From positions 27,376,150 through 27,440,149 of the forward strand of contig NC_134026.1 of the NCBI RefSeq assembly GCF_964204645.1: a stretch of DNA of 64,000 nt, written 5' to 3'. This DNA comes from Tubulanus polymorphus (taxonomy: Eukaryota; Animalia; Nemertea). Under the pieces are notes generated by a model. It had not been told where the DNA came from. It did no database searches and saw nothing but the letters and a program-made list of their open reading frames with translations. Each line of letters begins with the position of its first letter. The first letter of the stretch is position 1. A program made the position numbers and the translations under genes. Shown piece after piece: positions 99-58,371 of the stretch.

Positions 99-2280
99 TT
101 GGTTATAGAACTGTGGCGTTGGACAATTTTGTTGAAGACCTCATGGCAATGAAGAAGTCTAAAAAGGGCAAAAATGAGGAGGTAATAGTGGTTGGGTAGA
201 CTATCTATCTCTAAAAATAGTAAATAAAAGGATCAAGTCAGGATGACTGGGTCCAGGAAACAATCTGTTAATCAATATGTATTTTTGAAAATGCACTTGT
301 TATGCTTTTGCTTTCTCATAGATCAAAGTAATTGACCCGGAATCACTGAAAATACCAGTTGATAAAGAACTCGAGAAATATTTCAAGGTAATTAATGATA
401 AAAAGACTGATATCGAAACACAACCTTCATCATCAAAAATGATGTATTGATTCCTTTTCAGAGCACAGCTGGAGGCAATGTAAAACAATACACTAGATTA
501 ACCACAGTTCTACATGACCCAGGAGTAAGAAGAAGAATGGTATGAATTCTATTATAGGGTTTACATATACCAGTATATTGAGATTTGATAGTTAATTCCG
601 TCTTGTCTCAAATTATAGCAAAATCCTGATGTGCAAAAGTATGATATCTTAGCTGTTCAGCCTACTGATGACAAAATGTTTTTAGTAAGTGTTCTGGATA
701 AGAATTAACCAAATGATTGTCATTCTTTGAAACATTGTTTTAATTCCATTGTAGTTGGCATGTCAGCAATGTGATGTTGATATCATTTCCCTGAAGCTAA
801 CTTCTAGATTGGATTTTAACGTTAAACGCAAAATAGTTAAATTAGTAAGTTAAAAATTCGTTGAACGTCTAAGACAATGCCTTTAATCATAGTAGTGAGA
901 TTTTGATTATTTGTTCTAGGCTGTGGAAAGAGGAATCCATTTCGAAATAAGTTACAGTCCAATGATTACAGATAGCTCATCTAGGCAACAAGTACTGTCC
1001 AATGCCTTAGAACTCAATAAAGTTTGCAAAGGAAAGGTAGGTCTCTACAACAGATACAATGTACAAATATTTTTGTCTTGAAGAAAAGTTGAGTTTGTAC
1101 ATGGGATTTCCAATTATTTGTATTTTTAGAACATCATAATCTCCAGTCAAAGTGAAAAGGTAAATAATACATGTTTATCAGTTTGCTTAGTTCAGCATTC
1201 TCAGAAAACTACATTGATTATGTAAATCATTGATGTGATTGCCAAACCTGTACTAGTAGCCTAATTGGTAAAGCGGTCTGTAATTTTGCAGAGAGTTGTG
1301 GGTTCAAATCCCACCTGGTATTTGGCTTCACATTCAATGTTTTTTTACTGAAGGACTGAAGCTAGAATTATATTTTGAATAACCATTAAATAATCTAATT
1401 TCAGACATCAGTTTGCCTGTACATAATTTAATTTCTATTTTGCAGTTTATGGGTGTGAGGAGCTACTACGATGTAAAGAATCTGTATCCTTTTAATTTGA
1501 TGAATATTATTATTTTATTCTTTTGTTGTTTGTAATCCTTCATTCATCACAGTTGTTGTCTTTTTGGAATGTCTGAAAAAGAAGCAAAGGATGCTCTCAC
1601 AGTGAACTGTGCTGCAGTGTTAAAACATGCAGGTGAGTACAAATACATGTATTTTAGTCAACTAGAACTAATCTTAAATCCATATCACTCAGTGCCAAGC
1701 TTTTTAGTATGGATTAAGTGATATATGGATTATAGATAATCCATAGTTCTACAAATTTTACCTAATTGGAACTATGATGTTAGCCTATAACCCGTATGAT
1801 AGCCTGTTTGGGTATACTGCAGTGCCTGTCCATACACAGTTACATTTTGAAATTTTGCTGCAAATATATGTTCTAGATTCCAGTGACACATTAATTTGGA
1901 CGAGACAACAACTACAGAATAAGTGATAATAGTACAGATCATCGAGTCTGAATTAGACAGCAACATGGGACCGATTTACCAAGGTTATTAACCCAGTAGT
2001 CAAGCTTTTACTTCATCCATTTTCAGCTATGAGGAAAAACCTTGTTAAAGGCGCTCTTTACGTGAGAAAACTTTCTGAGCCAAGCGTTCGAATGGACACA
2101 GAAAAAATTGATCAGGCAAAAGATTCTAATGACAATAAACAGTCTAATGAAACAAGTTTGTCTCAGAATATGCAAGGACATAAAAGGAAAATGGGTTATG
2201 TTGAGAATGAATTAACTCAGCAGGATAAATCAGTTAAAAATGACGAGGCCAAATTGGCAAAGAAATTAAAGAATGTTTAA
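99..2280 (+). CDS. RPP30: Ribonuclease P/MRP protein subunit p30, 5'-partial, multi-exon
   Basis: GT-AG exons 99-181, 322-387, 462-539, 619-684, 755-844, 920-1036, 1130-1159, 1446-1483, 1553-1632 and 2027-2280 splice in frame. They give GYRTVALD, YTRLT, KYDILAVQP, DVDIISL, AVERGIHFEISYSPMI, KGKNIIISS and RSYYDVKNLCCLFGMSE, all recognisable RPP30 motifs. AATAAA at about 2292. Confidence 0.92.
1251..1320 (+). other. tRNA-like element (pseudo-tRNA or tRNA-derived SINE head) in an RPP30 intron
   Basis: A box TAGCCTAATTGG and B box GGTTCAAATCC. T-arm GTGGG-TTCAAAT-CCCAC. Acceptor-like pairing TACTAG/CTGGTA. Anticodon-like arm TCTGT/GCAGA has a non-canonical 6-nt loop. Confidence 0.75.
1484..1552 (+). 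other. U12-type (minor spliceosome) GT-AG intron in RPP30
   Basis: 5' splice site GTATCCTTT and branch-like TCCTTCAT close to the AG, with no long pyrimidine tract between them. Removing it keeps the frame (VKNL/CCLFG). Confidence 0.8.
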
Positions 2281-3537: not shown

Positions 3538-6029
3538 TTAATAAAACCGTTTACTCCTGTAATCTTGTTTGTTTGAATAGACAAGAAATCCTACCATACC
3601 ACACACACCTACTCCAATAACTGACAGGATTATTATCAAAAGTAGTTTCCAGCCGGTCATTCGTCCACTAAAAAATCCTGGTTCTGGATCATCAGAGTGA
3701 ACTGAAAAAATACACAATTTTTTTCAACATCATTTACTGTTCTGAGTCAACTCATGACTGTCCTTATATCAGTACATTTACCGGTAATTTATTCATCCAG
3801 CTAAATAAAACTTACCCCTGGGAGCGGCAGCTTTGGCTGCTTCAGGAATAATTTTCGAGTAATCAGTTGTATCATCCTTCTGTTTAACAAATGTAAAATG
3901 TCACAAAAATAACCACAATTTTTATCAAGACATCAAAATAGATAGATATATTTACCTTGTGCGTTATATCTAATTCATAAAACTTTACAGACACAATATC
4001 ATGATTATCTGAAATAAAGCATGACATTTTGAAGTGACCCAAATAAGAAGTGAATGCATTATTTATTACGCTAGATTATTGTTCACTAACCAGCCAGTTC
4101 TCCTGTGGCTGCCGATGCTCCAATAAAATATCCAGTAGGTAACTTGATGCCGGAGACTTTAAAACATTCCTTCCAAGTTCCTTTATCATCAACATCCGTT
4201 GAAACCTCAAATAGTATATTGCATATACATGTATATAATGATATATTGCATCAAAAATTGTGGATTGTATTTTCAAGTTGTGCGGCACATGAACTGGATC
4301 AATATAAAATTATATCCTTACTGTGAGCGTGTTATCTGTATATCTCACTGCTAATAGTGTATCATAGTTTTTATTTCTAAATTGCGATTCACAACCATTC
4401 AGTTCTGTGTGCGTCCCATCCCGATCATGATCATAGTGAAGAGAGCCATTATTTATCATAGCCGATATGTACGGGTGTCCATGCTAAAAATATGCATATT
4501 TTATATATCATTCAATTCTAGAGTACCGTACATATAACAGTATTATTGATATGAAGTACTTATGTATTAGTGAAGCACAGCTTATGTTAATAATTTTGAG
4601 GATTTGGGTTGTTTATTTCAACTTACATTATGAGGTCCATTGTGGTTGCTATAGGTATCCAGGAATATTGCCAAACCAGTAAAATAATCTTTGCTTCCGA
4701 AGACATCACCTATTTAATAGGTAATAATTACGAATAACACAAAAGGTACATGTAATAGGGATATGTAAAAATGTAAACCGTGTCTGATAAGCTTGGAGAA
4801 AGCATTACGATCAAAATTATCATACCTTGAGTCAATCTTTCCTTTGTATACCAAAGGGCCATTCCATCACCAAACAATTCCTTCCCTGAACCATGAACTT
4901 TGAAATGAACATGCATTTCCCAGTCACGAACAAATACTGGCTGTAATAAAAATAAAACAACTAATGATAAGACAAGTTGGATGAGTAAGACTTGTTTCAA
5001 AGAAGTAAAATGAGAAAAGTTTTCTTTACTTTATTTCAATTATCTACATCAACACATTAGTTTCACAATTTCTAACCGCAAACCCAAATGATAAAACAGC
5101 AAATATTTTAGATACATGATATTTTAAAGTGACTCAGGTTTAGTGAGTGATTTATTGATTTGAGAAACAGCCAATATCCAATGAAATAAGTCCAACACAT
5201 TGTACAGGTGGCCTGTATTGTGTGGTGGATAAATCAATACTAATAATTGTAATGATGTTGACCATTATTGAATGAATTAAGATACATTTTTACGGCATAT
5301 TCAATGATATTCTGACAATGAAAATTAGAAAATACACATACATGTTTATTCCATAGACCTCCCTGTTTACTCTGATGATCAGGTGTTAGTCGAACATATT
5401 GATTAGTAACCATCGTACTGCCAATAAAATCCCATAAATTATCTGAAAATGTAAGAAATCGGTTTGTTACAAATAATATTTCTTTCAAGAGATTTGTCAT
5501 GTTGCAAACAAATGGCATACTTTAATTGACCTATCAGTCACGACACAGCCCAACAACAAGTTTAAGGAAGAGAACTATTTCCAGTTGACAAGGATTAGGA
5601 ATTTCATTATTGGCACAACTTGGAAGTTGTACTTGTAGTTAAAAAGGGCTGGTTAAAAAGTGTACCTCCTTTGAATAAATGTGAGATAATATAAGCTAAT
5701 TTTATGGAGGAGCATAGAATATAGTTAACATGGTTAATGAATTCAAAAGAAAGAATGAATTGATGCCGGTGTGTGATCAGATGATGAAATGAATTGAATG
5801 TATTGTAATTGTATGGTTGTTGATCGATCGGTCGACGAGTCGAATGGTGTGATCACTGGCGCATACGTTTCATTAAAACCAGTTTGAATATACATCATCT
5901 ACCTTGGTATGGTTTGACAAAAGTATGTTCTCGTTTAAGATAGTCTTTTGTATTCCATGTTCCATAGATGAGGCAGTAATTCGATAAATATAAAAGGAAG
6001 GTGAACAAAAACTCGCACGACGACGCCAT
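3538..6029 (-). CDS. LMAN2: VIP36/VIPL-like L-type lectin (LMAN2/LMAN2L), about 9 coding exons
   Basis: Signal peptide, then YLKREHTFVKPYQ, WDFIGSTMVTNQYVRLTPDHQSKQG, DWEMHVHFKVHGSGKELFGDGMALWY, and a C-terminal TM helix ending RSKRFY-stop (stop at 3538-3540). Confidence 0.93.
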
Positions 6030-6489
6030 TTCTCTCCAACGGTAACACATAAAACTCGGTGATGGCCTCTGGACTGACTCATTCACCCGTGCGGAAATAA
6101 AATCCGGATTAGGACTTTTAATGGAAATTATCAAAAGCCGGATCAGGACTATATTGCATCATCACAAACCCGCCCGTGCCGGACCGCAAGTATCTATCGT
6201 TCTTCGCCTCGAAACGATCGAATAAACAAAAAACACTGAATCTAACACCGTACACTGGCCTTAACATAACTTTATGATTGTGGTTCGTCTGAGAATAAAA
6301 TTCTTGATATTGATGGTCACTGGAGATCAACTTTCAGTTCTGGTTAAGATCAGTTTACGTTAAGATGATAGGGGACTTTCTGATTGGTGAATTTTTGCAC
6401 TCTTGCTTCGATGAGGTTCTTGATTGAAAAAAAATAACTAATGAAAGCATGTTTGGTTTTCTTTTGCGATTGGTTATATTTCATTAAGA

Positions 6490-7218
6490 TTGTACAAAAT
6501 TCACAACCCTAAATAATGCAAAAACTATGATAGTACAAAAAGTTATAGAATGCTAAAAGCCACTGAAAAGTTGCAAAATGCTATCAAAATATCATGCCAT
6601 GCTATGGGCTCAAATTGCCCGATTCTTAGTTTGCCATCGTCTGGCCAACTTGCATGACTTAAACACACATCGTCCAGATTAATCGATCGAATTTGATCGA
6701 TTTGAATTAGAATTCTAAATAAATCACCTTAATTGAAACTGTGTACATCGAATATGATGCCGAAAAACGGTACATTGGGTCCTCTAGTCATGGCCCCGGC
6801 GGACTCCATGATATTTTCTTTCTCCGATTGAATATATTTTATCAAAATTAGTACAAAATTCACTAGCAAACAATATCTATAAACAATGAAAAAACTATGA
6901 TAATAGAAAAAAAATTAAAATGCTAAACGCTATATCAAAAAAGAAACTAAAAGTTGTTAAATGCCATCAAAATATTGATTTTCCAAGCTGGGCTCAAATT
7001 GCCCGATTCTTCGTTTGCCATCGTCTGGCCAACTTGCACAACTTAAACATATCATCATCCAGATTAATCGATTGAATTTCGTCGATTTGAATAAGAATTC
7101 TAAATAAAACAGCTAAATTGAAACTGTGTACATGAATATGATGCCGAAAAAACGGTACATTGGGTCCACTAGGAATGGCTCCGGCCGATCGTGAAACAGC
7201 CTCTGGACTCCATGATGT
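6490..7218. repeat. Diverged direct duplication (about 6490-6813 and 6851-7218)
   Basis: Shared blocks such as GGGCTCAAATTGCCCGATTCTT, GTTTGCCATCGTCTGGCCAACTTGCA, GAATATGATGCCGAAAAA and GGACTCCATGAT occur in both copies. Confidence 0.9.
6610..6813 (-). pseudogene. Degenerate copy of the last exon of the adjacent secreted-protein gene
   Basis: Homologous to 6994-7218, but with an in-frame TAA (VHSFN-stop), indels and no splice acceptor region. Boundaries approximate. Confidence 0.7.
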
Positions 7219-8220
7219 TGGTGAAATGTTGAAGGAATTACGCTGAAAACCAGATATTTACAAAATGAATGAGTATATTGTTAAGAAACACGTATATGAT
7301 ACTACCACATTTTCAAATCATCAACTTTTATATTCACCATTTTTACTAATTTCTCAAGTGTCCAGTTCAGCGCCGTTTTCATTTCTGTTACTTTGTCCAC
7401 TTTTAAGTGATCGGTGCTTCGTTTTTTACGAAATTCTTCGGTCGTTATTTCGAGAAGATATTTATTATGTTGCATAAGTACACTAATTCGACTTACTAGA
7501 GCCTGCACAAAAGGAATAAGATATTCATTGAAATATCCATGTTAAGTCCCAAGTTACAATAATACGTATATCGAATACGAAGATACCTCAATCATCGCTT
7601 CGATGTTGTTGTATCGACTGTATCGTATGGCTGGGAGATCTGGTAGAAAACGGGCATTTTGAGTATTACTGACACTTATTTCTACAGCAGCACATTTAAC
7701 CATATTTCCCGGTAAATAGATTGAAGAACGCCTAGGTTGTATATCGTCTACTTTGTCTCCGTGAAGATTACACTGCAGAGGAAAATCATCATCGTTAATA
7801 AGAAAATCGAGATCTCGAGATCTATTTTTGTAATATCAACGAAAAGAAAATCTACTTACGTAATACTTGAAAGTTTCGTGAATTGATTGACTCAAGTTTT
7901 GCAAACCGATTTCATTCCGAACAGATTCGATGATTTGCTGGTGACATTTTCTGTTTCGTATCGGGCTGTGTTGTTGGTCTAGAACCGCCTGATAGGTACA
8001 CGTTGATGCACACATTACTGGCGGTTGTAGATGGTAGATCAACATTGCGCCGAGTAATAGAAATGATATTGCCCCTAAAACGATCGAAAATAGCATAAAA
8101 TCTTAAACTTTGGCATAAAGTTATGAGTTTAATTCTTATATTTGACGTCTGTATCCAGGCGATATTAAGCCTATAACTTCTGTCAAAACGCATACTGGCC
8201 CTGCTAACCCTACCTTCCAT
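6994..8220 (-). CDS. Predicted 273-aa secreted alpha-helical protein; candidate long-chain class I (IL-6/LIF/CNTF-like) cytokine
   Basis: Exons 8220-8214, 8074-7860, 7772-7587, 7502-7338 and 7242-6994 are separated by GT-AG introns of 139, 87, 84 and 95 nt (phases 1,0,0,0) and splice into one open frame. It starts with the signal-peptide-like MEGAISFLLLGAMLIYHLQPPVMCA. The gene model is well supported; the family assignment is inference. Confidence 0.72.
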
Positions 8221-8276
8221 TTCAGTATATTTGACCAGTATTGCTGAAGTTCTGGATTTGCGAATCATTTGGGCTG

Positions 8277-8284
8277 CTTTTATA
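8277..8284 (-). promoter_or_regulatory. TATA box of the secreted-protein gene
   Basis: TATAAAAG on the minus strand, about 57 nt upstream of the ATG at 8220. Confidence 0.55.
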
Positions 8285-9453
8285 TCATCCCTCCCTCGAT
8301 CATCCAAAATGGGACCTGAATTTCCCGGCTGGGAAACACCGGTCAAATATGTTAATTGTTGTCAGTCACAGTAATAGAAATACTCAGAATGTTTACATGC
8401 GGACGTAGAGTGAGTCCACTCACGGAAACCCCGAATTTCGTTCGGCAAAAGTCGGAAAATAAAAATATAGAACGGAGGTAACTTCAATACCGGATATCAC
8501 TCGTATCAATGGAACAGATTTTTCATTTTGAACGTGTTTCACAATTGAAAAGCATAAAACGATTTTTCGCACGCGGTTAAAAAACCCGCATTGAAATCTA
8601 AGTGACGTTGTGCAAGTTTTTAATTTAAAATGTGGGCCATGATTGAATGAGTTGCAACTGCAATGACTCTATCAATCTGGTTATACAAAACTCAACCACG
8701 TTGAAATAACACATGGATTTCCCCGCAAAATGGATCCATTTTCATGCAAACGATATTTCAAAATTTGACATAATGGAAAATTAATAGATTTCTCAAGAAA
8801 CGACTTGCTTTTGCCAAATGTATCAAAACACAGTGTGCAGATGAGTGGACGATGAGTAGACGAATATTCACAAGATTGAAATAACGCCTACGTTGATATT
8901 ATTGGGCCGGGTTTTCTATAGTACGTACGTAGGAAGATATCGTAGCCCGAAATAATTACCCTGCGCTCTGTTTCAACAGGCTTGTTTTAATTAAGTCAGT
9001 CAATGCAGGAGTACTTTAATGAAAGGGTTTTGCTGAGGCGCAATTGTATGAAAATCTTCAAAAGTCGTTTATAAAGAATTCATTCATGCGTCGTTCGTTT
9101 CATTAAGGCAAGTGTTTGAGCGCCGTTGCTACACTGTGACTATATAGGTGTTTGTGTATTATTCTCGTGCGCAGTACTGTCCTAATCAGAAGTGTATGAC
9201 AGTAAAATGATGATCGATTTAGGATGAATTCGTGGGACGATAGACATTTCCACATCGGGTAGATATCAGCAGGTAAGAATTACTTTTCATAAATGTGTAA
9301 AGTTTGATTCGTTACGAAAAAAATCGTTAGAAAACGCAAATTATTAGGAAGAAAATATTTCACAGTATGTTGTTTGCATTAGGTATATATATATCATATG
9401 ATATGAATTAATTACGAGCTATTCTGATGATGCTATTTTCATTGAAAAGCAAA

Positions 9454-12400
9454 ATGAATGAAGCCGAAGTAGAGCATGAAGGAGAGTTGACAAACGGTGT
9501 GACAAATTTAGCCGCTACATTCGGCGAAGATGTGATAAATAACTCCAATGACACGCAGAATACTATTTTGACCACTGACGAACCGTCATCAACTGTGACA
9601 ACGGTCGAAGAAAATCCAACAGAAACCGCTCCACCTGACCGAAATATCATCGTAACTCCTCTTTTGAATGATGTTCCTGACTTAACAGAAAATTTGCAAG
9701 ATCAAGGAGATAGAGTTAGAGTGAACGCTGCAATGATGGACGTTCCCGATCGACCCGACTCAAGTGCCAGTGTCGAACACGCTATTTCAATAAACGATAG
9801 CGTAGCAATTAACAATACTACTAACGTAGAAAAGGGTCACGATAACGAAATAATTTCCACGGATAAACCTAAAACGAAACTAAAATTCACCTCGAATAAT
9901 GAGGTGCACGCCATGGGACCGGAAACTAAGCGAAGAACAAAAGCACGAACATCGAGGCCGATTTCAGCAAAATCTCGAGCACGAAAGAAATCTCATGCCA
10001 GGCGAAGAACTTCCATTACAGCAGTGAGTGTACAGTTTTACGAGCATTGAATTTAATAATTTAGCAATCGTACGCGCTCACGAGAATTAGACTCGAATGA
10101 ATTATACATACTTAATATATAACAATTCGTATTATGTGAATTGTAGTTGAAACATGATGTAATTGCGGCTTCATTTTCGAGAAAAGAATGCGTTCACTTC
10201 GTTCAAAATGAGAATGCGTACGGAAATTACCCGAGGTAAAGTAACAAAAGTACTCTGGGTAAATTGATATTTGTAATATGTTTCTAACAAGACCAATGCG
10301 ATGCGGGCTCCAAGCAGATAATTATGGTGGCTGATAAGGGCCATAGCGTAAAATTCCTGGTATGTAAATGAGGGCGCCAGAACGCCAGAACGCCAAAACG
10401 AAAAAAAACGTCCAATTTTCTCTAAAAGTTCGTTTTGGCGCGCCAAAACAAAGAAAATTCCGTTTTGGCGCCCCCGCCAAAACGAACTTTCATTTTGGCG
10501 CCCCCGCCAAAACGAACTTTTGTTTTGGCGCCCCCGCCAAAACAACGAAAAACGTCGAAATTTCTCTAAAAGTTCGTTTTGGCGCGCCAAAACAACGAAT
10601 ATTCCGTTTTGGCGCCCCCGCCAAAACGAACTTTCATTTTGGCGCCCCCGCCAAAACGAACTTTCGTTTTGGCGCCCCCGCCAAAACAACGAAAAACGTC
10701 CAATTTTCTCTAAAAGTTCGTTTTGGCGCGCCAAAACAAAGAAAATTCCGTTTTGGCGCCCCGCCAAAACGAACTTTCATTTTGGCGCCCCCGCCAAAAC
10801 GAACTTTCGTTTTGGCGCCCCCGCCAAAACAACGAAAAACGTCGAAATTTCTCTGAAAGTTCGTTTTGGCGCGCCAAAACAAAGAAAAGTTCGTTTTGGC
10901 GCGGTTATTTCCGTTTTGGCGCCCCCGCCAAAACAAGCATTCAACCACAGTAAAATTATTTTTCAAATTGGCGCGTTGATCTTGTGTGTAATTCGGGGGC
11001 GCCAAAATGAAAGTTCGTTTTGGCGGGGGCGCCAAAACGGAATATTCGTTGTTTTGGCGCGCCAAAACGAACTTTAAGAGAAAATTGGACGTTTTTCGTT
11101 GTTTTGGCGGGGGCGCCAAAACGAAAGTTCGTTTTGGCGGGGGCGCCAAAATGAAAGTTCGTTTTGGCGGGGGCGCCAAAACGGAATATTCGTTGTTTTG
11201 GCGCGCCAAAACGAACTTTAAGAGAAAATTGGACGTTTTTCGTTGTTTTGGCGGGGGCGCCAAAACGAAAGTTCGTTTTGGCGGGGGCGCCAAAATGAAA
11301 GTTCGTTTTGGCGGGGGCGCCAAAACGGAATATTCGTTGTTTTGGCGCGCCAAAACGAACTTTAAGAGAAAATTGGACGTTTTTCGTTGTTTTGGCGGGG
11401 GCGCCAAAACGAAAGTTCGTTTTGGCGGGGGCGCCAAAATGAAAGTTCGTTTTGGCGGGGGCGCCAAAACGGAATTTTCTTTGTTTTGGCGCGCCAAAAC
11501 GAACTTTTAGAGAAAATTGGACGTTTTTCGTTGTTTTGGCGGGGGCGCCAAAACGAAAGTTCGTTTTGGCGGGGGCGCCAAAATGAAAGTTCGTTTTGGC
11601 GGGGGCGCCAAAACGGAATATTCGTTGTTTTGGCGCGCCAAAACGAACTTTTAGAGAAAATTGGACGTTTTTCGTTGTTTTGGCGGGGGCGCCAAAACGA
11701 AAGTTCGTTTTGGCGGGGGCGCCAAAATGAAAGTTCGTTTTGGCGGGGGCGCCAAAACGGAATATTCGTTGTTTTGGCGCGCCAAAACGAACTTTTAGAG
11801 AAAATTGGACGTTTTTCGTTGTTTTGGCGGGGGCGCCAAAACGAAAGTTCGTTTTGGCGGGGGCGCCAAAATGAAAGTTCGTTTTGGCGGGGGCGCCAAA
11901 ACGGAATATTCGTTGTTTTGGCGCGCCAAAACGAACTTTAAGAGAAAATTGGACGTTTTTCGTTGTTTTGGCGGGGGCGCCAAAACGAAAGTTCGTTTTG
12001 GCGGGGGCGCCAAAATGAAAGTTCGTTTTGGCGGGGGCGCCAAAACGGAATTTTCTTTGTTTTGGCGCGCCAAAACGAACTTTTAGAGAAAATTGGACGT
12101 TTTTCGTTGTTTTGGCGGGGGCGCCAAAACGAAAGTTCGTTTTGGCGGGGGCGCCAAAATGAAAGTTCGTTTTGGCGGGGGCGCCAAAACGGAATATTCG
12201 TTGTTTTGGCGCGCCAAAACGAACTTTTAGAGAAAATTGGACGTTTTTTTTCGTTTTGGCGTTCTGGCGTTCTGGCGCCCTCATTTACATACCAGGAATT
12301 TTACGCTATGGCCCTTATCAGCCACCATAGATAATGAATGTCATAATATCATTTTTGAGTGATTTCCAACTGATTTCTACCGCTGTAATAATGAGGCGAC

Positions 12401-15400
12401 CCGCTATGAAATACATGAAATTTTCCACCTTGATATCAGCCTAAGTTTTGTCATGGATGCAAAAACTAGGGCTTACACTTCTATATTATGTCAATACTAT
12501 AACTGAACAATCAGTACTAGTGCTAATTGTGAGTGTGGTTAAAAACTTCATTTTATCGATATTTTAAGATGTTTTTGCGGCGGTTCTCTGGAAGAGCATT
12601 ACAGTACAGGTGATTATCCAAACCGGTTGAAAATAGCAAAATCATCGAACGAAGTTTGGGACGCTGCTAAAGATATAAAAACGCTGCCAACTAATACATA
12701 CGGGAAGATCAATTTCACCAATATTGGACTTGAAGGTCGTGCAAATGCTCGGGTAAGATTTCAAAAGAATATAAACATCTGATATTAGAGCCTTATACTT
12801 GTTTTAGAAAATCTTGTAATTATCGTCTGAAATGTAAAATCATTTTTACAGTTTGTTCGGCTCTCAAATGAAACTGACATGGACGATGTGCTTCGTAAAC
12901 TATTACTTAATGTCTGGGGTATGAACTCAGCCCGGAAAGCGAATCTAGTAATATCAATCACTGGTGGTGGACGAAATTTCGAAATGGATCCTCGAGTGTC
13001 CGGAAAATTTGAGACCGGTTTAGTGAAGGTATTTACCAACGTGTCATTGTAAACATCTACGTATTATCTATCAATCGTTTTTCGGCACATTTGATAATTT
13101 TCTATTTCAAAGGCCGCTAGAAGCACGAACGCGTGGATAATGACTGCTGGATTCCACATGGGTATCGTGAAGGCTGTGGGCAGAGCTATCTCTAAAGGGC
13201 AAACCTTTGATTGGGGACCAAATCGTGGTACTATGTCTCTCCAGTGCATCGGTATTTGCCCTTGGGGATACGTAGATGATCGCTATAAATTGACACCGGA
13301 CGGCTCAGATGAAATTCCACTTAGCGTAAGTCAGAAAATGATTATCAGTTTGATAACTGAGTTCATATCCTTACCTTCCTATATGCAAATCTATTCGTGT
13401 CTTTATTCAATGATGTTGTGGTGTTTTAGGAATGGGACCACGAGCAACCTGTGGATTATTACGTGAATAATGTGGTAAGCGGTAAGGACATAGCCCTTGA
13501 TCCAAACCACACCCATTTTATCATGGTAGATGACGGAACGAGGGGAGAATATATGCATCTCAGTGAATTCCGTGCCGCACTCGAGCGCAAGATATCATTG
13601 CCCGACAAACCGATCGGGGATGTTTCAGGTTTGATTCATTTTCATTCGGTCGTTATCGGTTGCAACTTTTGCGAATGTCTCTAATGTATATTGATTCATA
13701 TTTATTCCAGAAACGGGTCTTGGGACACCTATAGTGATGGTAATCGTTGAAGGTGGTCCAGATGCACTGATTGACTGCGCAACCAGTATGAGAAATGGTG
13801 TACCAGTAGTCGTGTGTTCTAATTCTGGACGAGCAGCTGATATTCTCGCTGAAGCGTATGACAAATTTAAAACGCTGGATCAGTTGGACGGGTTAGTGAC
13901 AATGAATGCTGATGTAGAGACACTGTTGTTATTCCTCTCTGTTTGTAACTAAGGGTTTCCATTCAGTGCATTTCTATCCGTGTATCGAAAATAAAGAAGG
14001 GCTTTGAATAGTTGTGATGAATAAATGATTGACCTCAGTTTGCGTGACTTCCTGCACCACGGGAGTCCTACATTACCGCTTATCAAGAATGAAACCAAAA
14101 TTGCCTGTGTCTTATAATGACGTCATAAGTATATATGTATATGAATATATATGAAAAAGGAAACAATTGTTTTTTTAGTCCCCAAAGAGAAAGTGCCCTT
14201 GAACGCATCGAAACAGACATGTGCAACAAAATGAAGGTAGCTTTCAGCAGCAAAAGAACCTGGAGAACGGGAGATGTTGATAGTAAAGCCAAGAAATACT
14301 TCGGCTATCTCAAACAATGTTGCAAAGAACGGCATATGGTAATTCAAAAGGCATTCGTCCTCGTAGATGAAAATATTCGTTGAGAAATCTTCTCCTGACT
14401 TAGATAATTGACAATTCGATGATGATTTTTACCGTTTTCTGTAGATTACAATATTCGACTTGAAAAATGATGAAGATTTCGATAAAGCCATTCTGAAAGC
14501 TTTGCTTACGGGTAATTAATTATGAAATATCTATTACTCAAGATATTCAAACTGTTTTGCATGGCACGTTTTCACGTGGAATGTTCTGCTGCTGTAGGTA
14601 CAGAAATGGGCCATGAACAACAAGAGTTTCGACTCCTTCACCAGCTTCAACTTGCTCTGTTGTGGGATCGAAGTGATGTCGCCCAGGAACAAATATTTTC
14701 TATCAGCTTCGAGTGGAGTGAAGGTAAGCTATCACGTATCCATGAATGACACTAAACGTATTTGGATATGTTATTCAGTATAGATACCTGGTCTTGATAT
14801 CGTAGGTAACTTGGATGCCATGATGACTCGTGCATTGATAGAGAATAAACTTGACTTTGTGGAACTTCTAATGATGAACGGACTGTCATTGAAAGATTAT
14901 CTAACTGTTGAACGACTGACGCATTTGTACAATTCGGTATGTTCGTAATTTCATTGAAATAATGGATTGAATTTTAGATTTGAGTAATTAGAACGAGTAG
15001 GTTCCACTAAAGGTTTAACGTATTTTGGCAATATTTTCAGTTCCCGAAACAAAGTCATGAGTATTTCATTCTTCGGAAGCATGTTATATTCGGAGAACTC
15101 GATAAGAGTCAGATAACACTTCTCGACGTAAGTAAATTGCTCAGGAGATTCATCGGAAAGCACAACGACGCCACATACCTAAATTCGGAACGAACAGATT
15201 TAGTGCCGCCAGATACAACATTCTCAAAACCATACCGAGAATTACTATTTTGGAGTTTGCTCCAAAACAGGTATATAAGCAAATTATCATGACTGCGTAC
15301 TTCCAATTTATAAACTATTATTAATCTATCAATTTTGATGTTCCATATATCTAGAAGCGAAATGGCTTTGATGTTTTGGGAAAATGGCGAAGACAATATA

Positions 15401-17944
15401 AAAATGGCTATTGCGGCAGCACTTGTTTGCACAGAACTTGCTAAAACAACAAGAACATACAAAACTGATCTAAAGAATGAGTTTCTCAGCATTAAGTCGT
15501 GAGTACTAAAGTTTACTTATGAAAAAATGGCTAACTTTTCAGAATTGTTGGCAAATGAATAACGTATCACCATTTTGCAGGAAATTCGAAGAAAGAGCAT
15601 ACACAATATTAGGAGAATGTGAGAAGACTGATCCTATTCTGACTTCACGAATGTTGCTCCAAACACAGATAACCTGGGGTGGTGTTGATTATTTGGAACT
15701 TGCTGCCGAGGCAAACAGCAACCAAATTCTCTCATCAACAGCATGTCAACGAACTGTCAACAACATATGGCGAGGTAGAATCTCATCCCCTACTAAATGG
15801 GTACGTATCAAAAGTTATTTACAATGTTCTTATGAAGATATGCAACACAGTTATATGTTAATTCGTTCTTCGTTGTTTTTATTTTGTATTATAGACGTTT
15901 TTCAGTATATTCATCCCACCATTCATATTTTGCCTGATAAAGTTCAAAGATAGTATTCATCCTTTGCGGAAAATATTCGAATTTTACCGAACGCCTTTGG
16001 TCAAATTTGTTATTTGGCTTGTAAGTATCAATGCATTGCTGTGAAGTCATGAATTATATTGTGAAAATACATCTTGAGATATGTTCCTTTTCAGGTTGTA
16101 TATTCTGGTTTTTTATGTCTTTACACGTACACACTACTGTTCAGACTGAAGCAGCATTATTTCACAGTCGAAGAAATCTTAACTATGACATGGCTTTCGA
16201 CGATGTTATTTGACGAATTTCGAGAGGTAAATATTCGATGTTTGTGTATCAATGGATTGTTTATAGAAACGATGGAATTTTTAGAATCTAACTATTGTTT
16301 TCTTTACATTAAAGGTATTTGTGTCGGGTAATGGATCGGGCACGACTAAACTAAAGAAGTGGTGGTCAGGGACGTCAAATAAGCTTGATTTTGTTATCTA
16401 CGTTGTTGCCATCATTTCATTTGGTTTACGTGCTTCGTCGAGCGACACGGTTTACCAGTGGGCTAGGCATTTTTACGCCATCAACTGCGTGTTTCTGTAT
16501 TGCCGAATACTGTCATTCTACTCAGCTAACAGTAAGCTTGGTCCTCGTCTAGTTGTTATCAAACGAGTAGTAAGTTTATATTTGTTGTATATTCAACTTA
16601 AAACTGAATGATATTCGTTAACAATCACTTTGTTTTATAGCTTTCAGAGTTGGTTGTATTCATGGCTATCATGTTAGTGTTCATGTTGGCATATGGTGTC
16701 ACTGTTCAATCCCTCCTTTACCCGACGATGACACCACACATTGGCATCATGAAGGAAATTGTAGCTGTCCCATACTGGCAAATCTACGGCGAGATCTTTC
16801 TCGAGGAGCTCTCCGTCGGTATGATATCAACTCCAATTTACAGGGACATGTATTTATAGGTTCAGCGGATCCTATTCCAAAGAAATGATGGACTGAGAAT
16901 AAATGTTGATGAATTGTTTTCTATTTGCAGAAGGCCAAAATTGTACTCCAAGTGGATTTGTTCATGGTACCACTAAGTTCTGTCGTGCTGACTCGTGGCT
17001 TGCCTATGTCCTCCTAGCTCTTTACTTACTCATTGGAAACGTGTTACTGCTCAATCTGTTGATTGCTATATACAAGTAAGACTAATGAATAGCTCTACTG
17101 AAAGGCTGTGTCTCTGGGCTTCTGTTTTCAACGGTTTCGTAATTTTTTTTCAGCAATGTCTTCCAAGAGGTTGAAGACAATGCTTTGGACGTCTGGAAAT
17201 TTGATAGATACGGTCTGGTGAAAGAATACCAAGAAAAACCAGCTCTTCCTCCACCACTCGTTATATTCGAAGATATTGTTATATTCATTCTTTCGATCAT
17301 CGAAAAATGTAAAAAACGAAAAAAACGCAAGAAACATAGTAAGTTATTTGCTTTCGGATTTTGTAGACCACAGGCGATATGGAAATCTCCTATAAATATA
17401 AGCATTGAAATGTAATTGCTACTTTTTGCAGTACTTGACGATGATGAGATTGACGCAGAGCTGGAACTGTTTGAAAATATAATGTCGTCGAAATATTCTG
17501 CGAGCATAAAACGAAAAAATGCTGAAACAGTTGACGAAAGAGTTAAAACCATGAAAAAACAGTGCGTAAAAATTCTCTAAAAAATTAAGTTTTATAGCAA
17601 AAAAGTTACTAATTATTTTTTCTTGTATTCAGAATGGATGACTTGAATAAAAAGATGGACCTAAACACTGATATGATGCACGAGAGTGCATCCTTTCAGC
17701 AGGTACTAATCACCTACAGAGCATTACGTGAAATTATTGAAGTAAGCTTTCAAACGAGGAAAGATATATATGATATATTTTTCAGATGCGAGCAAATACA
17801 AATGCTGCTCCGGATGACATGGCATCTTCTATAAGAAACCTGGGACAGCATAATAACGAAGTTTTGGATAAACTTCAGAAACAGAATACAGAGTTACAGA
17901 AATTACTTGAACGCACCTTGGGAGAATTATCGAAGACAAAATGA
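9454..17944 (+). CDS. TRPM-family cation channel, more than 20 exons, no C-terminal enzyme domain
   Basis: MHR motifs RKECVHF, CFCGG, ISITGGGRNF, AWIMTAGFHMG, CIGICPWG, LDPNHTHFIMVDDG, VEGGP, LALLWDRSDVA. TM region includes SKLGPRLVVI and pore PYWQIYGEIFLEEL. S6 NVLLLNLLIA, TRP box VWKFDRY, then a coiled coil to TGA 17942-17944. A probable non-coding 5' exon ends at about 9272. Confidence 0.92.
10323..12329. mobile_element. Non-autonomous foldback DNA transposon, IS3EU-like, in a TRPM intron
   Basis: Long matching inverted termini TATGGTGGCTGATAAGGGCCATAGCG.../...CGCTATGGCCCTTATCAGCCACCATA. 6-bp target duplication GATAAT at 10317-10322 and 12330-12335. TAY..RTA ends with a 6-bp TSD fit IS3EU. 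No transposase is encoded. Confidence 0.85.
10385..12267. repeat. Inverted arrays of a 144-bp minisatellite made of about 30-bp subunits
   Basis: Period 144 (e.g. GGACGTTTTT at 11087, 11231, 11375). About 4 units in the left arm and about 9 in the right arm, in opposite orientation, with a short unique spacer near 10935-10995. Confidence 0.95.
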
Positions 17945-20900
17945 TCGGAATGATTTAATGCAGAATTTGTGCAAAAAGCTGGTTTAACGTACACATCAAT
18001 CAAAAAAGTGAACCGTCCGTTAAGTACATCCAGTACCTAATTTAGTCAATTTATGTCAATTGAAACATCCGTTACGAAGCCTCTGGTGATATTATACCTA
18101 AAGTTTATAGATCTGTTGATAAGTTTTACATAACAAGGCAATGTAATATTTGCAATGATAAGTTGATGGAATTTTTTATACTATGATTTACATGAACTGT
18201 TATCATTATACAATAAATTTAAGTTATTTTATTGAATTGTTGGCTTTTTCTACACGATACCAAAATCTGAGCGACTGTAAGACTATATGCTTTATGCGCC
18301 GCCAAACTATCATCTGGATCATAGATAGCTGGAGATACGGAGAAATAAAGTGCAATAGAATTTCTGATGAACACATCAGTGTGCACCAAGAATGAATCAA
18401 GATTACAGATTATTCGACCGAATTGGAATTTCATTACATTAGATGAAAGATTCCGATCACTGGGATAGATTTATTTTTTATTTTGGTTGTTTATGAATAA
18501 CAGCTATGCATGCACTGATTTGCAATACTTTGATGGAGGTGTTTATTTCTTTCTGATTTAGTCTAATCTAACGGCATTAAATTACCATTACAATTTACTT
18601 GCCGTCGATATAATCCGGTTTACACGCCCGTTTACCATCTGCGTGCGAACGTTTGCGTCATGCATTTTTTCAGGTATCTCCCTCATTTAAAACTTGCAAC
18701 GATTACTTTCAATTATCCGTGAATAAATAAAGCCCACGGATATGAAAAAACCCATAATTGCATCCGCCATTTTATCCTAGACTAGCCTCTAGTATCAGAG
18801 TCAAGTGCTATTGATCACACAAGCGAAACATTTTTACCGCAGATTCGACTCCCGGCAATATTGATAAAAGATGATGCCAGGTGGTTCGAATAATAAACAG
18901 TTCATGTTTTAGGGTGATTTATATGATCGTTTGTTTACCTAATTTTCCTACTTTTCCATTATCAATTTGACGGGTTTGCTCACCGTCCAGGGATTGTCAT
19001 GGGAGCCGTGCTGCAGCATCGGAGGATGGTGTCGTTGTTTGCTCAAAGTATCAAGCGTAATGAGAATCAACTCTCATTATTCATGACAGTCGGGAATTCT
19101 ATAAGCTTCGGTAAACAAAAATTTTGCCGGATAAATCATCAGAATCCAGCGAATTTGTAATCGGGATTCAAGTTAATCCTTCACGCGGTGTCAAGAGTCA
19201 ACTCATATCATTGACTGTCTTCGTAACTGACTTAATCTATCACTTTGTTCAGTTTATCGAGGTTTTAATTTTGAATGCAACTACATCATCGCGAGATTTC
19301 ACGCTCGTCTGTCATATCATTTACGTTACAACGATAACTGCGAATGTGCACGAATGTTCAAACCAGCTTCTAATCACGCCCTGCTTAGCGCACAGGACAA
19401 GATACGACAAGATACTTTTCGATGTAGCAACAACACATTCATTCTTGATGAATGTTAAGTCTTTGATAATTTGTTACATTTTGCCGCCGAGGGCCAGTCA
19501 CTTGTGGCCTAAGAGAAATGGTGCGTACACCATTAAAGAAAATTAATATTCTTATTTCCATTCATTGTTATAAGTGTAAATGACTTGTGATATGGCTTAT
19601 AAATCGTTTTCCTTCGAATAATAACAGCGCACGAATGATTAAAGCTATCCAGCCAAGTAAGATTAAGCGTTACCTGCGGCAATACGAAATGTATTTTCAA
19701 TGATTGATCTCTTGGTTTTCATATCTTACCTAACGCTGCACCTTGTGCTAATGCTCTTTATAGTAGCAGATGCAGCAATTAAAACGTTCATATCTTTTCG
19801 AAATGATTTTAGTTTAATCGGCTTTTGTTATCAACTCTCCACCATATTGTATTTGCTATTGTGTAATAAAAAGCAACGTCTTTAAAAGTAGATAGGTGAA
19901 ATATAAAAGCATTTATTCATACATCAAAGCTATACGTATTTTGTAGATTCTTCAAAGAAATGATAGTGATTAGCTGTACTTTTTGTGTGAGAAATTTACA
20001 ATATGGAATGCATTACAGTAAGATTTCACGTAATGTCTTCGTTTGGTATCTTTACACATAGATAAGTACTTCATTCAAACATTAAGCCCGCAAGACGCTT
20101 CAATCAACAAATAAATTGCTGGTGTTAGACCAATGCATAAGGAACATGTTAGCCATTAAATGTTGGTTTAAGTTATGATACAGTGGTGGGTGATAATGTC
20201 ACCAGTGGTATTACCAGTGTCTTCAATCACTTAGATATGCATCAAGACGGTGAAGCCCTTAATCAAACGAATTGCTGGTAATCGGCGACATTTGTGTCAA
20301 TGTGGCTATTTACTCCAAACTAGCATTTACAGTCTATATTCTTTATGATTTACGGCCTTCAATTTGCCACCCGAATGACTATCTATACCACGCAGATGTC
20401 CGCTAGAAAAAAGTCTTAAATTATGTCAAAATTCATAGGCCGAAGATACGCCCTTTTGTCGGCGTTTGCGAAAAGGGCCAGTGTGCCGTTCTCAAGCTAA
20501 AATTCTGGATGAGAGAGTTCGAATGCCAAGGCATTGGTTTATGTCGTGGTGCATGATCTACACAATAAAACTGTAACCAACAATTCCCAACATAACTCGC
20601 CCATATAGAACCTTAAACAAAACTTAAACGTGCCTTTTATTGGCCTCATCAAAACCTCGACAACGATCCTTCACCGCACCACGGCGAAAGAATGTGTTGG
20701 GGGAGGGCGGATTTTCCACCTGAATATCCCCAAGGCTTTTGATACGAAACAGTGTTATGACCATATTTTATGACGTTCCAATAGAAATCTTAAGTTGCCG
20801 TTATTCTAACAACCGGCACGCATAATGAATAGTTTGAACCAAATCACAAACCCAAGGGAAACACATTTGTTATCGTTTTTGATAGTGTTTAGATCCTTGT

Positions 20901-25781: not shown

Positions 25782-28700
25782 CTATAACATAGGTCGATTA
25801 CTCGATGTTAGTTCATCGTCCTCCATATCTGAGTTATCGGCACTCATTTGTTCCGATTCTTCTTGTTTTTTCTTAGCTGTTGCCATTTCAGCCGCGTGTC
25901 TTTTTCGCCATTTTGTTCGTCGATTTTGAAACCACACCTGAAAGATAAGAGTACGCGGTCTGATAAAAATAAACCGAGAACTTTTAATTCATGCTATCAA
26001 TTATTTCCATATCTGATCGAAAACTCAACAAATTTGATGAAATTTTGCAAGTGTAATGAACAACAGATAATTATGGCAGAAGAATTCCATCGTCTTACTC
26101 GTACAAAAGCAGTATGGAGATAAGAATGATAATTTTGCGGCCGGCTTAGCTGGAGGCAATCCGGGCAATGTTCCGATAAGGTTGTAACAATGTCTAATTA
26201 TTGCCGATTCATGCTATACTCAGTAGCTACAAATCCGCGTTTCGTTTACTATTAACGTTATCAACAACGATCTACTGTTGACACGACGGGCAAAATTGCA
26301 GCAAATTTCTATTGTTATGTGTCATCTCGTTTTCCATTCGCAAATGGGCTGCTAACTATCGCGGGATTCAAGATGCATATCGGACCGCCATGGACGACAC
26401 GGCATAATCCCACAATACCATCAATCAAGTCAAACAAACTAAACGACATGCGAGTCCTAAATAAATCCGACCAAATGCTTACTGGGCACGATTTCGGTTT
26501 CTAAATTAGTTATAAAAAGATATAGCCTTGTCTATTCATTTAGAATTTGGCTTGACCTTTATGGCACGACACCATAATAACAAATTTCTCATCCAAAGTA
26601 ATTGATCTTTAATGACCTAGGATGAATGATTCCAACTGTTTGAAAATGTCCTGATCAATACACGGCACCAATGTGGTGATAGACGTTGTCGATAATTTGC
26701 AAAACGAGGAAACAGCAAAACAGCATTTTTAGGAGTAAATATGAGTAAATCTGTAACTGGGTGGAATTTGAGTTTGCAGTAGGGTTGGTACTAGTGATTT
26801 TTATCCAGTCTGCTATGTAATAGGTGATATAATATGCGATTGATCGTCACCGTTTTACATTGCATTTGTTTTTTAAAATTAATTTTTGATCCCTAATAAT
26901 CGAAGAAGCAATAACTGGGTAACATGACTCGAGAGATCGGGGCGTATACAAGGCAATTCGGAATTGAATTTATAGTTCCCCACACAGGTGTCAAGAGTGA
27001 AACATTGGGGAGCAAATTAAATTTGCCAGTGCTGTGACGGGAACGCAATTATTGCCAATAATCCCGGAATTAGACAAATTGTAGATTCAAGCTCAGTTAC
27101 TAATACCAAATTTCATGAGATGCGTCGTTCGTGGCACCAGATAATAAAAGACTTTGATAATGGCTCGAGATAAGACTTAATCCGAGAAAAGGAAACAAGA
27201 AAGCGACGTGCATGGTATTGGGCTGGCAGATGAGGGGAGGAAGCAAACGGATCAGAGTGATGAATTGATATCTAATGAAGCGTAAAATAACTGAACACGA
27301 AGCTGTCTGTAAAGAAAGCAAAATGAGGTTCCAATCTTGGCGCTGTTAGAGTAATATGCATTATTAGTGAAGTGAGAGACAATAAAATCTACATGAAGAA
27401 TACCGAACTCTCAGTAAGCTGTAATTATTTCACACTGGAACTATACGTCAGCATTAGACATGAATTATCAACGAATGCGCTTTAAGTTAGGTTGGCATGA
27501 TCGACCACCACCGAAGTTGTACAAACAATGACTTGCTAAGTGTTCAGATGTGGAATGACTTACGTCTTCAAAAAAGAAGAACATGGTGTTCAGCTGTTCG
27601 GATAAAAATTCCAGATCCGATGCAGATGGATGAACAACGGGTTCCCACCTGTCTGTGGTTGTAAGGGCCCCTTGCTACTCCCAACCGATTTCCATCAATA
27701 ACACGTGATGGGCTTGTTTAGATACATCGCCCAGTTAAAAGGGTTTTTATTTCGATGAGAATGCTCTTATTGCGTGTTGTTTATTATGCCAGGCGCGAGG
27801 AAAAATGATGTTTGTTGCCAACTAAGCGAGATGTTAATGAAGTCTCTTCTTGAGTGTTTGCGTTCAAATGTCAGCCGAATATATTCATCACAGATGGCAT
27901 AAAATGAAGTAATCTCTGTTCTATTCAACATCATATAATATCTAACAATGATAAGTTATCGTTTGTTGAAATCGAGTGTTCCATTCTCAACATGATACAA
28001 ATCATAATGAACCAGAAAGTTATCCCTTATCATCTTGTATTTACAGTTTGATAATGCAACAAATATTGGGAATTTTGTTCGCTTGAGTTAGTCGATTTGA
28101 ATACAAAACAGCGTATCAACTGCTCTAGGAGACTTTGAAACCGATTACATTTAAAAACTTGTAGGCGGGTTACTTCAAAGCGTTTGACCATGAATTTGAT
28201 CCCAATATATGTCAGTTGTACACGGGGTCAAGGGTGCTTCAGAGTAAGTGAAAGAAGACATCGTCACAACTGATAAATCGTCCAAGCGACTTATCTACTT
28301 AAACCTCAGTGGCGCCACAATATTTCAAAAGAATTAAAGGTATCTACATCACGAAACAAGCGGCGTGGCAAAATATTCTTCATACACACCTTAACTTGAC
28401 TTTCAGACATGCCTAATGCATATGCCAATCTGGCTCTTTCCGGTCCAGCCAAATATTTCGTCTGTTCAAATGTCTTTTCTAATGCAAATATCTGCTGACC
28501 AGAAAATGTCGGTCTCGTGTGTTTCCGTTTACCATCTTTATCAATCGTTACGTTGTTTTGTGAATCTATAAAGAAAAATTTGAAAATATTCAAAAAGAAA
28601 TATTCTACAAAAAACCAATCATCTTTAAATAACCTAGAATAGTTCAAGAAGCGCTAAACTCGGGTCCAATACTAGCTATCAAGTTATTATCAGTAAAATC

Positions 28701-31700
28701 GTTGTTTCTGTGATTCATGTTAACTAAACTTTGTTTTTATGCTTGTCCTGAAAGCTTCGATTTTTCCATCAAATGTCGTATTACAAATAATTTGCGACAA
28801 TGTTTTCGCGTTCTTCGATCATTGGAAAAGTGACAGGCCTTCGCTGATAATTGTATTCCAGTGATTAGTGCAGAATCATACCCTTATGCCTTCGATTCGA
28901 TATGAAATTGGTTTTTCGATTATAGACAGAAAGATAGTGTTACGCCGATGTCAATCTTATCATTGGCAGTATTTCGAACGTAATTTTCCCAGCATATGAT
29001 CATTGGTTGGATATTCACTTCTGGTAATTTGCAGCTATGATTGTAAGCGAAAGTCGATCTAACTGTGACTTGTGACGAGATTGGTTTCAAATAAGCAGAT
29101 CAACAAGACGAATTGGATTCGTGGATTTAGCGTTTGAAAACCGATCGGTTTGACATCGACCTGCCTGCCCTCCGTACATTTTACTGTCACAATTCATACA
29201 TTATCTAATCGAGACTCGTCAAATTCAAAATTTGACGAGAACCCGTGGAATTAGGTTGAGCCAAGGCTTACAATGCGTGAAAAATGTTACACCCGACAAT
29301 GATGACGAAGCAAGCTGCGAACATATTGTCGAAATTAAAACGACACATTATCAATCATCATACACAGAAAACGCTAAAGACACATTCTGTTTTATAAGAT
29401 GCAAAACGAACGCCATTTATCCGTAATCCGATAAATTAGCCTGACTGATCATTAATTTGATTCGTAAGTACATTACACATTCAAATACCGAATTATTTTT
29501 CCGATCCTGGCAGCCTAAAACAGATGCATGTATAGCTATCAGTAATCCCCAAACAGCAATCAATTGAACGACTGAATAAGAACATTAAAGCACCAACAAC
29601 TGCATAATGTCGTCGACCATTTTACAGAGAGGCAGACATGAATATCAAGTATTTCATCAGACTTCGCTCAGAGTCACGGGTTAAAAATACGAATTCGTCA
29701 TGTTCATCCTCGCCGATTTTTATTCATTGTTTAGTAAACCACGACTCATACGGTGTTATCAAAAGAAAAGTAAATTGATATCTTAATGGCAAATTAATTC
29801 AATAACCGGCCTAAAAATCATGAAATAAAGGTTTTTGATATAATGGAAACAGCTAAGAATATTCATCTATGATTATCTTCAATCATCATTAATAAGAATT
29901 AACGATTTGTGTTTAAATGTATTTTTCATTTCGTTTCAAAAATATATACCATGATGCATTATACCATGTTGAAAAGGTTGAAAAGCAAAATTCTTTGCAC
30001 TAATATTTCATTAATCCTCTTTCCTTTGCAATTTAGCTTTACTATAATGGCTTTATATTTGTCTTATAGCAGTAACACATGTTGCTATCGTGCCAATTGG
30101 CTAAATTGAGCCAGCTCCTTTTCGCGGTGGTACATGAACATAGTAAAAAATAATCGTCTCTTGAAAACGTTTGATGCTCACTTCTTCCGGCGTCGGGTCT
30201 ACTTCTTCAAATTCTCGGTCAAGCCTGCTTTGTTTAGTGGGCACTGATTAAACTAATAAATTAGTAATCCACAGTTAGAAGCAGCCGATTTATTGTAAAC
30301 ACTCCCAACAAGATCGTCCGACATAGCAAAAAACGAGAGGACTTCGCGCTAAATATTATATCGAGTCAACCTTTTTAAACCTTACAAAAAGAAATACGGT
30401 TGATTCGAATTCGAAGTATTTCTGTGAGTTGTAATATTCTGGTATACTTTCATTTGTTTTGACTGGAGTTTAAAAGAAGATCGAGCCTCGTGCGGAATCA
30501 ATGATATTTATATCATCGACTTTATTAAGCCACTTTACGTCATTATTTCGTTGAAATCGGTCAATCATCAGTCGAAAAAATAGGTGGCATATACAATATC
30601 GCCTGAATACGATCTAGATGAATTTAAATTCGAAAAGTATCGAAGAAAATATTCGCCACTGAAAAATGTAAATGGCAGGATATTTCATTAAAATAGTCTC
30701 GTAAGAACATTTATTTCCAAGGAGATTTTAGAAAGCAATTCATTTGATCGTCATACGGGACACGTTTAAATGCGGTAATATACATTGTTTCCATTGAGAT
30801 ACCGAGTCAAATTGAACGCCATTTGATATAAAGATATATGTATTTCCTACTTAACGGTACAATTACGCGAAAATTCGCAAATGTCCAATTTTATGCCTCT
30901 ATGAACAAATGGTCTTCCATAGATGGAACAGAAAGAAGGAAAGGTGAACGAGCGCTATTGTAATAAAGGATTGACAGCTTTAATCGTGTGACTTATGAAG
31001 ATTTATGGTTGTTTAATGTCCCTTATATTGTGCTTATGTTACTCTAATACATGCAGGTCAATTCCTACGCTTAATACGTCCATTTTGTTTGTCACTTTAA
31101 TTTATGAATCGTTTATACGTATTTTGTATTCAGAAATTTTCACGTTTGAGAAAAAATTAATCACTTACTTAAAGGCACCCCCGTATCATGACTGGGTGAA
31201 TTAACGGTACAAATCTATTTCAAGTTAAGTAGATATTGGCTACAGTTTTTTTTAAAATATAATCATAGGGATATAACCGCAGATCTTGTATGTATTGTGG
31301 AAGAAAGGAGCTTTTTACTTAATTTGCCTCATGTCTGGGTTCTCTCTCTGGACCAGTCATACTTTGAAACTTTAAAGTGTTGTCGGTCTGACACAAAACA
31401 TTTACCGGCGTGCCGTGCCATTCATCGACGAAAATTTAAACGGCCAAATTACACCAGCTTTTTCAGAATTTTTTCCAAGGTGCGACAATGACCCATTCTA
31501 CGTGAGCTGTCGAGCTCGGATAATAAACGAGCGACGCTTTCAGAAGCTTCAGGTGTTTTTAGAAGTCTATTCCGGACATTCCTTTATAACCCAGGTTCCC
31601 ATTGTGTTACTGAACATCTTTCATAATTCTTCCCCTCTAAGACACCTTGTCGCCTATGATAAATGACTCGTCCTAATGAAGCCGTGTCTTTTCTGCTTAC

Positions 31701-57744: not shown

Positions 57745-58371
57745 GGATCTGAAACATTTGTCAGATGACATTCAATCAGACATATAAGAACAATAGGTCC
57801 TACCTTCATTGAAATAAATTAAAATGAATGGTAGAGAGCCTTGAGTGGCTAATCTACTACAATGACTATGACAAATATTCACCGTGTTGAAGGAAGCATG
57901 TTGTTCTTATTAAATCAGACTTCTTCAAAATCAATCATGAGATTCGGGTTAGGACAGGGGCAGGGGGACGCGATGCTTCGATACTCAAACGAAATCGATC
58001 GTGTCGTAGTAGTAGTAAGGCCAACCTTAAAACCTTCTCCTCAGTCGAATCCAGCTGCTGATGAATCTCCTGCCCTCATTTTGACACCTTAACAACCAAA
58101 CACTACACTGTCACCACATTTTCATTCATCGTGCCGTGTTGATCCTTGGTTTCAAGTTAAAACTTGACGTGTACCCGGAAGTAAATTGGTGTCGTAAATC
58201 AATGGGAAAATATAAGATTTTCTACAGTAATTTGAAAACAATCGAAATTTTTATTCAATAAATTGTATCTATCTTTAAAGAATGTTATATATGCATTATG
58301 AATTTTTGAAAAATTAATATTTCTCAAAGATTTGTCCATTAATAACGTAAAGTGGTCGGTGTAATTCAATC

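Follow-up and report, generated by a model that had tools for sequence, protein, structure and literature searches.

A spliced gene in the nemertean Tubulanus polymorphus and its plausible reading as a class-I helical cytokine

In the vertebrate IL-6, IL-11 and G-CSF genes, the last three introns lie in phase 0. IL-6 has five exons, with the first intron within the signal peptide, and the first intron of IL-11 lies 7 bp from the start (PMC13081863 and PMC3271213, both available in part). An up-up-down-down topology needs long crossover linkers (PMC7378365, in part). According to the accessible part of a survey from 2026, which covered 18 animal phyla or subphyla, IL-6 occurs only in vertebrates, molluscs have an IL6R-type receptor together with JAK and STAT, and the invertebrate ligands known are insect Upd and a shrimp lectin (PMC13203501). 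Here, we describe a gene on the minus strand (6994-8220) of a 64,000-nucleotide stretch of the nemertean Tubulanus polymorphus (NCBI RefSeq assembly GCF_964204645.1, contig NC_134026.1, positions 27,376,150 to 27,440,149; hereafter, the window). The gene is real and is spliced at intron 2, and its product, of about 250 residues (mature, ~247 aa), is probably secreted, as judged from its sequence.

The reading of the spliced gene product as a cytokine is plausible but unproven. Several independent features, among them the order of linkers and helices and the exon phases, suggest a class-I cytokine, and a class-I four-helix fold seems rather probable to us. That the protein is a long-chain member of this class, acting through a gp130/Domeless-type receptor and JAK-STAT, we regard as an even chance. 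More tentatively, and with some doubt, we propose that it represents a new long-chain class-I cytokine family in a non-vertebrate, non-insect animal, one that would keep the vertebrate five-exon, 1-0-0-0 layout and be the missing ligand for orphan IL6R/gp130/Domeless-type receptors.

Gene structure and splicing

Minus-strand exons at 8220-8214, 8074-7860, 7772-7587, 7502-7338 and 7242-6994 join into 822 nt, or 273 codons with a single terminal stop. The four introns (139, 87, 84 and 95 nt; guanine plus cytosine (GC) content 0.26-0.35) are all GT-AG and lie in phases 1, 0, 0 and 0. Our splicing computation thus reproduced the five exons, the phases and the 273-aa translation proposed in an initial annotation, and the arrangement, in which intron 1 interrupts the region coding for the signal peptide, is that of the IL-6, IL-11 and G-CSF genes. 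Introns 3 (7503-7586; phase 0, 84 nt, with in-frame stops) and 4 (7243-7337; phase 0, 95 nt) are predicted from their GT-AG borders.

Five public runs were found, none of them recorded as RNA, and four (X1 to X4) were compared with the window; all come from one study and were available as contigs only. One X4 contig (record 20; depth ~8) covers the whole of exon 2 (7860-8074), skips intron 2 exactly (7773-7859; phase 0, 87 nt, ending CT..AC on the plus strand) and continues into the first 62 nt of exon 3 (7587-7772), these 62 letters being its shorter side; a further X4 contig covers 6896-7080. A second skip in X4 removes an intron of the plus-strand neighbor near 9271-9447 and, because the two GT-AG skips lie in different genes, spliced RNA is the simplest reading of X4. 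X1 runs unspliced across the whole gene stretch. X2 and X3 were treated as DNA because they cover introns and carry short repeated loose ends, which we take to be a proximity-ligation adapter. X1 showed no differences from the window in the exons and 10 differing positions in 6103-6798; in another sample, the exons differ by a replacement at residue 39 and by a single silent change.

The possibility that the exons are a chance chain of open frames, or belong to a decayed gene without a protein product, can be given almost no weight. It could draw on the single junction, seen in one contig at depth ~8, on the broken copy that adjoins the gene (see below), and on codon usage, which gave no support for the exons over background (this measure barely separates known genes from background in the window). 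However, the observed joint coincides to the base with the predicted splice sites and preserves the reading frame, which is intact over 273 codons from a signal-like start. In addition, a search for chains of four exons of at least 100 nt, with introns of 70-150 nt and in one frame (limits chosen after seeing the gene), scored 810 nt at the locus, and 0 of 1000 dinucleotide shuffles yielded any full chain. Within the window, a full chain was found in 9 of 358 tile-strands, seven over a TRPM-like gene and two at this locus.

Two forms of coding exon 1 are predicted, one of 7 nt (8214-8220; donor at 8213), as in the initial annotation, and one of 25 nt (8196-8220; donor at 8195, phase 1). The donor at 8213 is nearer the consensus (5 of 7 positions, against 3 of 7 for 8195), which favors the short form, whereas the spliced X4 contig begins just where exon 2 does, at 8074, which favors the long one. 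With the donor at 8213, the last two bases of exon 1 and of the intron are alike (AG), and an assembly branch would therefore be expected at 8076; the donor at 8195 fits better because its branch would start at 8074, as the contig does. The 25-nt form adds six residues, three of them Arg, ahead of the hydrophobic stretch, to give 279 aa, and, to judge from this one contig end, may provide the signal peptide with a more usual basic start. Both donors may be used.

The predicted protein and its comparison with helical cytokines

A hydrophobic stretch spans residues 5-15 (KD11 2.68) and is followed by sites conforming to the -3/-1 rule for cleavage after residues 24, 26 or 28; a hydropathy scan revealed no later transmembrane-like segment (maximum KD19 1.25). 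Hydropathy and the -3/-1 rule thus agree with the signal peptide proposed earlier, as does the count of five Cys following it: there are six in total (24, 28, 46, 75, 101 and 260), of which five remain after cleavage at 24 or 26. The N-glycosylation sequons, given earlier as two, are three (62, 182 and 196). The mature protein has an isoelectric point (pI) of 9.4 and a basic C-terminus.

Exon 2 encodes the predicted signal peptide, an N-terminal linker and putative helix A (about residues 46-76), and exon 3 a long, proline-containing linker (the putative AB loop, ~53 aa) and the start of putative helix B. AlphaFold2 models were made of single exons, with no alignment, and say nothing on packing. 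For exon 4 (7338-7502) the model has a helix at 138-163, a 4-residue loop and a helix at 168-190, putatively B and C (predicted local distance difference test (pLDDT) 77.2, predicted template modeling score (pTM) 0.43). For exon 5 (6994-7242) it has a low-confidence, proline-rich loop (the putative CD loop) followed by helices at 234-248 and 252-271, that is, putative helix D and an extra C-terminal helix with Cys260, before the stop (pLDDT 61.3, pTM 0.27). None of the five prolines of exons 4 and 5 falls within the helices predicted for them. Past residue 40, every proline lies in one of two stretches, 87-121 and 199-221, and the proline-free runs measure 46, 77 and 52 residues; in a post hoc comparison, 3662 of 100000 shuffles matched the third-longest run, of 46, and 6333 matched the summed length of the runs. 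The models and the prolines are in line with the short loop between putative helices B and C and the long loop before putative helix D, so that the order first proposed (long AB and CD loops, short BC loop) is partly supported; its description as four amphipathic segments was not upheld (see below).

If the protein is a class-I cytokine, the signal peptide would be cleaved after residue 24 or 26 and the chain secreted. Helix A would lie at about 46-76, the predicted helices B and C would be joined by the short loop and the long proline-rich loop would precede helix D, all four packing up-up-down-down, and the two linkers that carry the prolines would serve as the AB and CD crossovers. Disulfides may form among Cys28, 46, 75, 101 and 260; the chain may be N-glycosylated and could bind matrix through its basic C-terminus. 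Expression might be induced through the kB-like sites upon infection or injury, and the ligand would then dimerize a gp130/Domeless-type receptor and lead to STAT phosphorylation.

With the IL-6/gp130 family (IL-6, IL-11, LIF, OSM, CNTF, CT-1 and CLCF1) the predicted protein and its gene share a signal peptide (predicted here), a five-exon layout whose first intron splits the signal-peptide coding sequence, and a predicted helix-short loop-helix core flanked by long linkers; unlike the vertebrate members, the protein has a longer mature chain (~247 aa) and no detectable sequence similarity to them. Lamprey IL-6 was missed by BLAST and was found by using a length range of 150-280 aa (PMC13081863, in part); the length of the window protein falls inside this range, and its sequence is likewise beyond the reach of BLAST. 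Like the Drosophila Domeless ligands Upd1-3 (Unpaired), the protein would be a secreted invertebrate JAK-STAT ligand, and Upd3 is mostly helical by circular dichroism (PMC7378365, in part). Unpaired proteins, however, are reported from insects in the accessible part of PMC13203501, and no Pfam match to them was found for the four exons. A tree put the animal of the window outside the vertebrates, without finer resolution, and showed no supported grouping with the arthropod entries.

Several results weigh against a cytokine. Only intron 2 of the proposed junctions was seen exactly skipped, and joints for introns 1, 3 and 4 did not appear in the four public runs compared. None of the four helix segments is more amphipathic than its own shuffles (the heptad contrast was reached in 412 to 1893 of 2000). 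Both the putative AB loop (~53 aa) and the additional helix at the C-terminus exceed in length what vertebrate members have. The Cys residues at 24, 28, 46, 75, 101 and 260 do not match the spacing in IL-6 (human C44-C50 and C73-C83), and some fish and hagfish IL-6 retain only two of those cysteines (PMC13081863 and PMC3271213, in part). The FXXK motif of LIFR binders (defined in PMC9601804) is absent from the N-terminus of putative helix D, where LIF, OSM and CT-1 carry it; the sole F-x-x-K/R match, at 160-163, is in the B-C region. In Pfam, none of the four coding exons searched (55-82 aa, short pieces that give little power) matched a cytokine family at E values up to 1, and protein word searches with exons 5 and 2 found no relative. 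HMMER gave no match at E 0.001 for exon 5 among 1.84 billion representatives. Exon-by-exon searches of PDB sequences found no relative; the best match of exon 5 (8a0k, E 0.0067) is to a chain of a putative protein kinase, which is unrelated.

Single-exon queries against the ESM Atlas and metagenome contigs likewise found no relative. With no query longer than one exon (55-82 residues), the searches had little power. Sampling of the lineage is sparse as well: among long matches to the Nkx6 exon of the window, the best is 53% identical, and the best named one, from Lingula, 49%. A likeness to LIF and CT-1 had been noted by eye near the boundary of exons 2 and 3, where putative helix A would end; we see it by eye as well, including a phase-0 intron at that point, but neither the Pfam nor the PDB sequence searches, nor any other, supported it. 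Literature searches, which covered few subscription journals and no supplements, turned up no paper on such a gene.

These results bear on a different explanation, that of a lineage-specific secreted helical protein unrelated to cytokines. Such a protein could serve in mucus, in the matrix or in gamete recognition, or be a precursor that furin cleaves at RKKR (161-164, in exon 4) to yield disulfide-linked chains. Neither a phase-1 intron within a signal peptide nor a phase-0 intron is in itself uncommon, which was counted in favor of this explanation together with the lack of a detectable relative in any search, amphipathicity not above shuffles, the basic pI and the furin-type motif. One R-x-K/R-R motif in 273 residues is, however, not rare (~0.14 expected, by our estimate), and the order long linker-helix-short loop-helix-long linker-helix, with the exon phases, fits class-I cytokines. 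We consider this explanation unlikely, though deserving of serious attention.

The GH, prolactin and EPO genes share the same five-exon layout; therefore, the layout does not single out gp130-type ligands. In EPO, a disulfide links the N- and C-terminal helices, and Cys46-Cys260 might do likewise here. Both points were counted for the possibility that the product has the same class-I four-helix fold and is a GH/prolactin/EPO-type hormone acting on a single-chain receptor such as CRLF3. In the accessible part of PMC12409108, the only group-1 type I receptor that eumetazoan invertebrates have is CRLF3, in which vertebrate EPO and TPO elicit a response. Nevertheless, such a hormone appears improbable: the window protein is without the cysteine pattern of these hormones, no Pfam model of these hormone families matched any of the four exons searched, and the Rel-like sites and TATA box described below point, if weakly, to an immune gene that can be induced.

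A class-II (interferon/IL-10-like) helical cytokine, like oyster CgIFNLP, we hold to be highly improbable. Together with the lamprey and lancelet interferons, CgIFNLP represents secreted helical cytokines in or near invertebrates; interferons, too, have five exons, and the window protein possibly has five helices if the C-terminal one is counted. In addition, the accessible part of PMC9756803 records an interferon-like protein in oyster and no IL-6-like one. Interferon genes, however, have phases 0-0-0-0 (bioRxiv 2026.05.30.728932 and PMC4929537, in part), as opposed to 1-0-0-0 here, where the first intron is in phase 1 with either donor, and no interferon Pfam match was found in the exons searched.

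As regards the long-chain class-I cytokine reading, a concrete gene with a spliced transcript makes the ligand gap testable. It also offers a search recipe, in which small, secreted, five-exon, 1-0-0-0 genes are collected and then examined for structure, akin to the routes that led to lamprey IL-6 (PMC13081863, in part) and lancelet interferon (bioRxiv 2026.05.30.728932, in part). If the reading is true, the IL-6-type gene, including its introns, would predate vertebrates and possibly go back to the bilaterian ancestor; if the fold fails, the product would be an ordinary lineage-specific secreted orphan.

The upstream region, the broken copy and neighboring genes

On the minus strand, a consensus TATA box lies at 8277-8284, 64 nt upstream of the ATG at 8220; one was found against 1.48 expected, and only its position is suggestive. 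An NF-kB/Rel-like site is located ~40 nt upstream of the TATA box (8318-8326), and a distal NF-kB-like site at 8715-8724 (consensus GGGRNWWYYC, reached in 210 of 2000 shuffles) may belong to a divergent plus-strand gene, with which the region 8221-9170 is shared. Two matches to GGGRAWWTY in that region were reached in 56 of 2000 shuffles, this being one of 11 motifs tried, uncorrected. As sequence motifs, the TATA box and the two Rel-like sites provide weak support for a cytokine.

Downstream of the stop, a putative 3′ untranslated region (6815-6993), whose far end is provisional, is U-rich and has one ATTTA, without AATAAA or ATTAAA. It adjoins a degenerate tandem duplicate comprising most of exon 5 and of this region (6457-6803, minus strand), in which 299 of 379 columns (79%) are identical to 6814-7188 and which has frameshifts, a stop and no acceptor; the window thus holds one intact copy of the gene and one broken fragment. 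Within the broken copy, run X1 has an 8-nt deletion as well as several differences.

A multi-exon, LMAN2/VIP36-like legume-lectin gene (~3600-6030, minus strand) starts ~800 nt downstream, on the same strand. The divergent gene (9172-10050, plus strand) has a 5′ exon, spliced in X4 with a joint near 9270-9448, together with an acidic, low-complexity frame, and may be the 5′ end of a TRPM-like channel gene at 14300-18200. Between them, at 10391-12261, a GC-rich, 144-nt tandem repeat forms two blocks in opposite orientation (3.6 and 8.8 copies), 94-98% alike and with internal 30-nt units. The last exons of another gene (130-2280, plus strand) end in a 107-aa, lysine-rich frame with no Pfam match. 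Farther away are the Nkx6 homeobox gene (28306-32856, minus strand), the nearest named match of whose first exon is the Lingula sequence mentioned above (49%), and two tandem class C G protein-coupled receptor genes (44699-51835, plus strand), in each of which one long exon encodes most of the ectodomain and the first helices. A GDA1/CD39 NTPDase gene (54573-57771) and a voltage-gated potassium-channel-like gene (61183-62190), both on the minus strand, follow.
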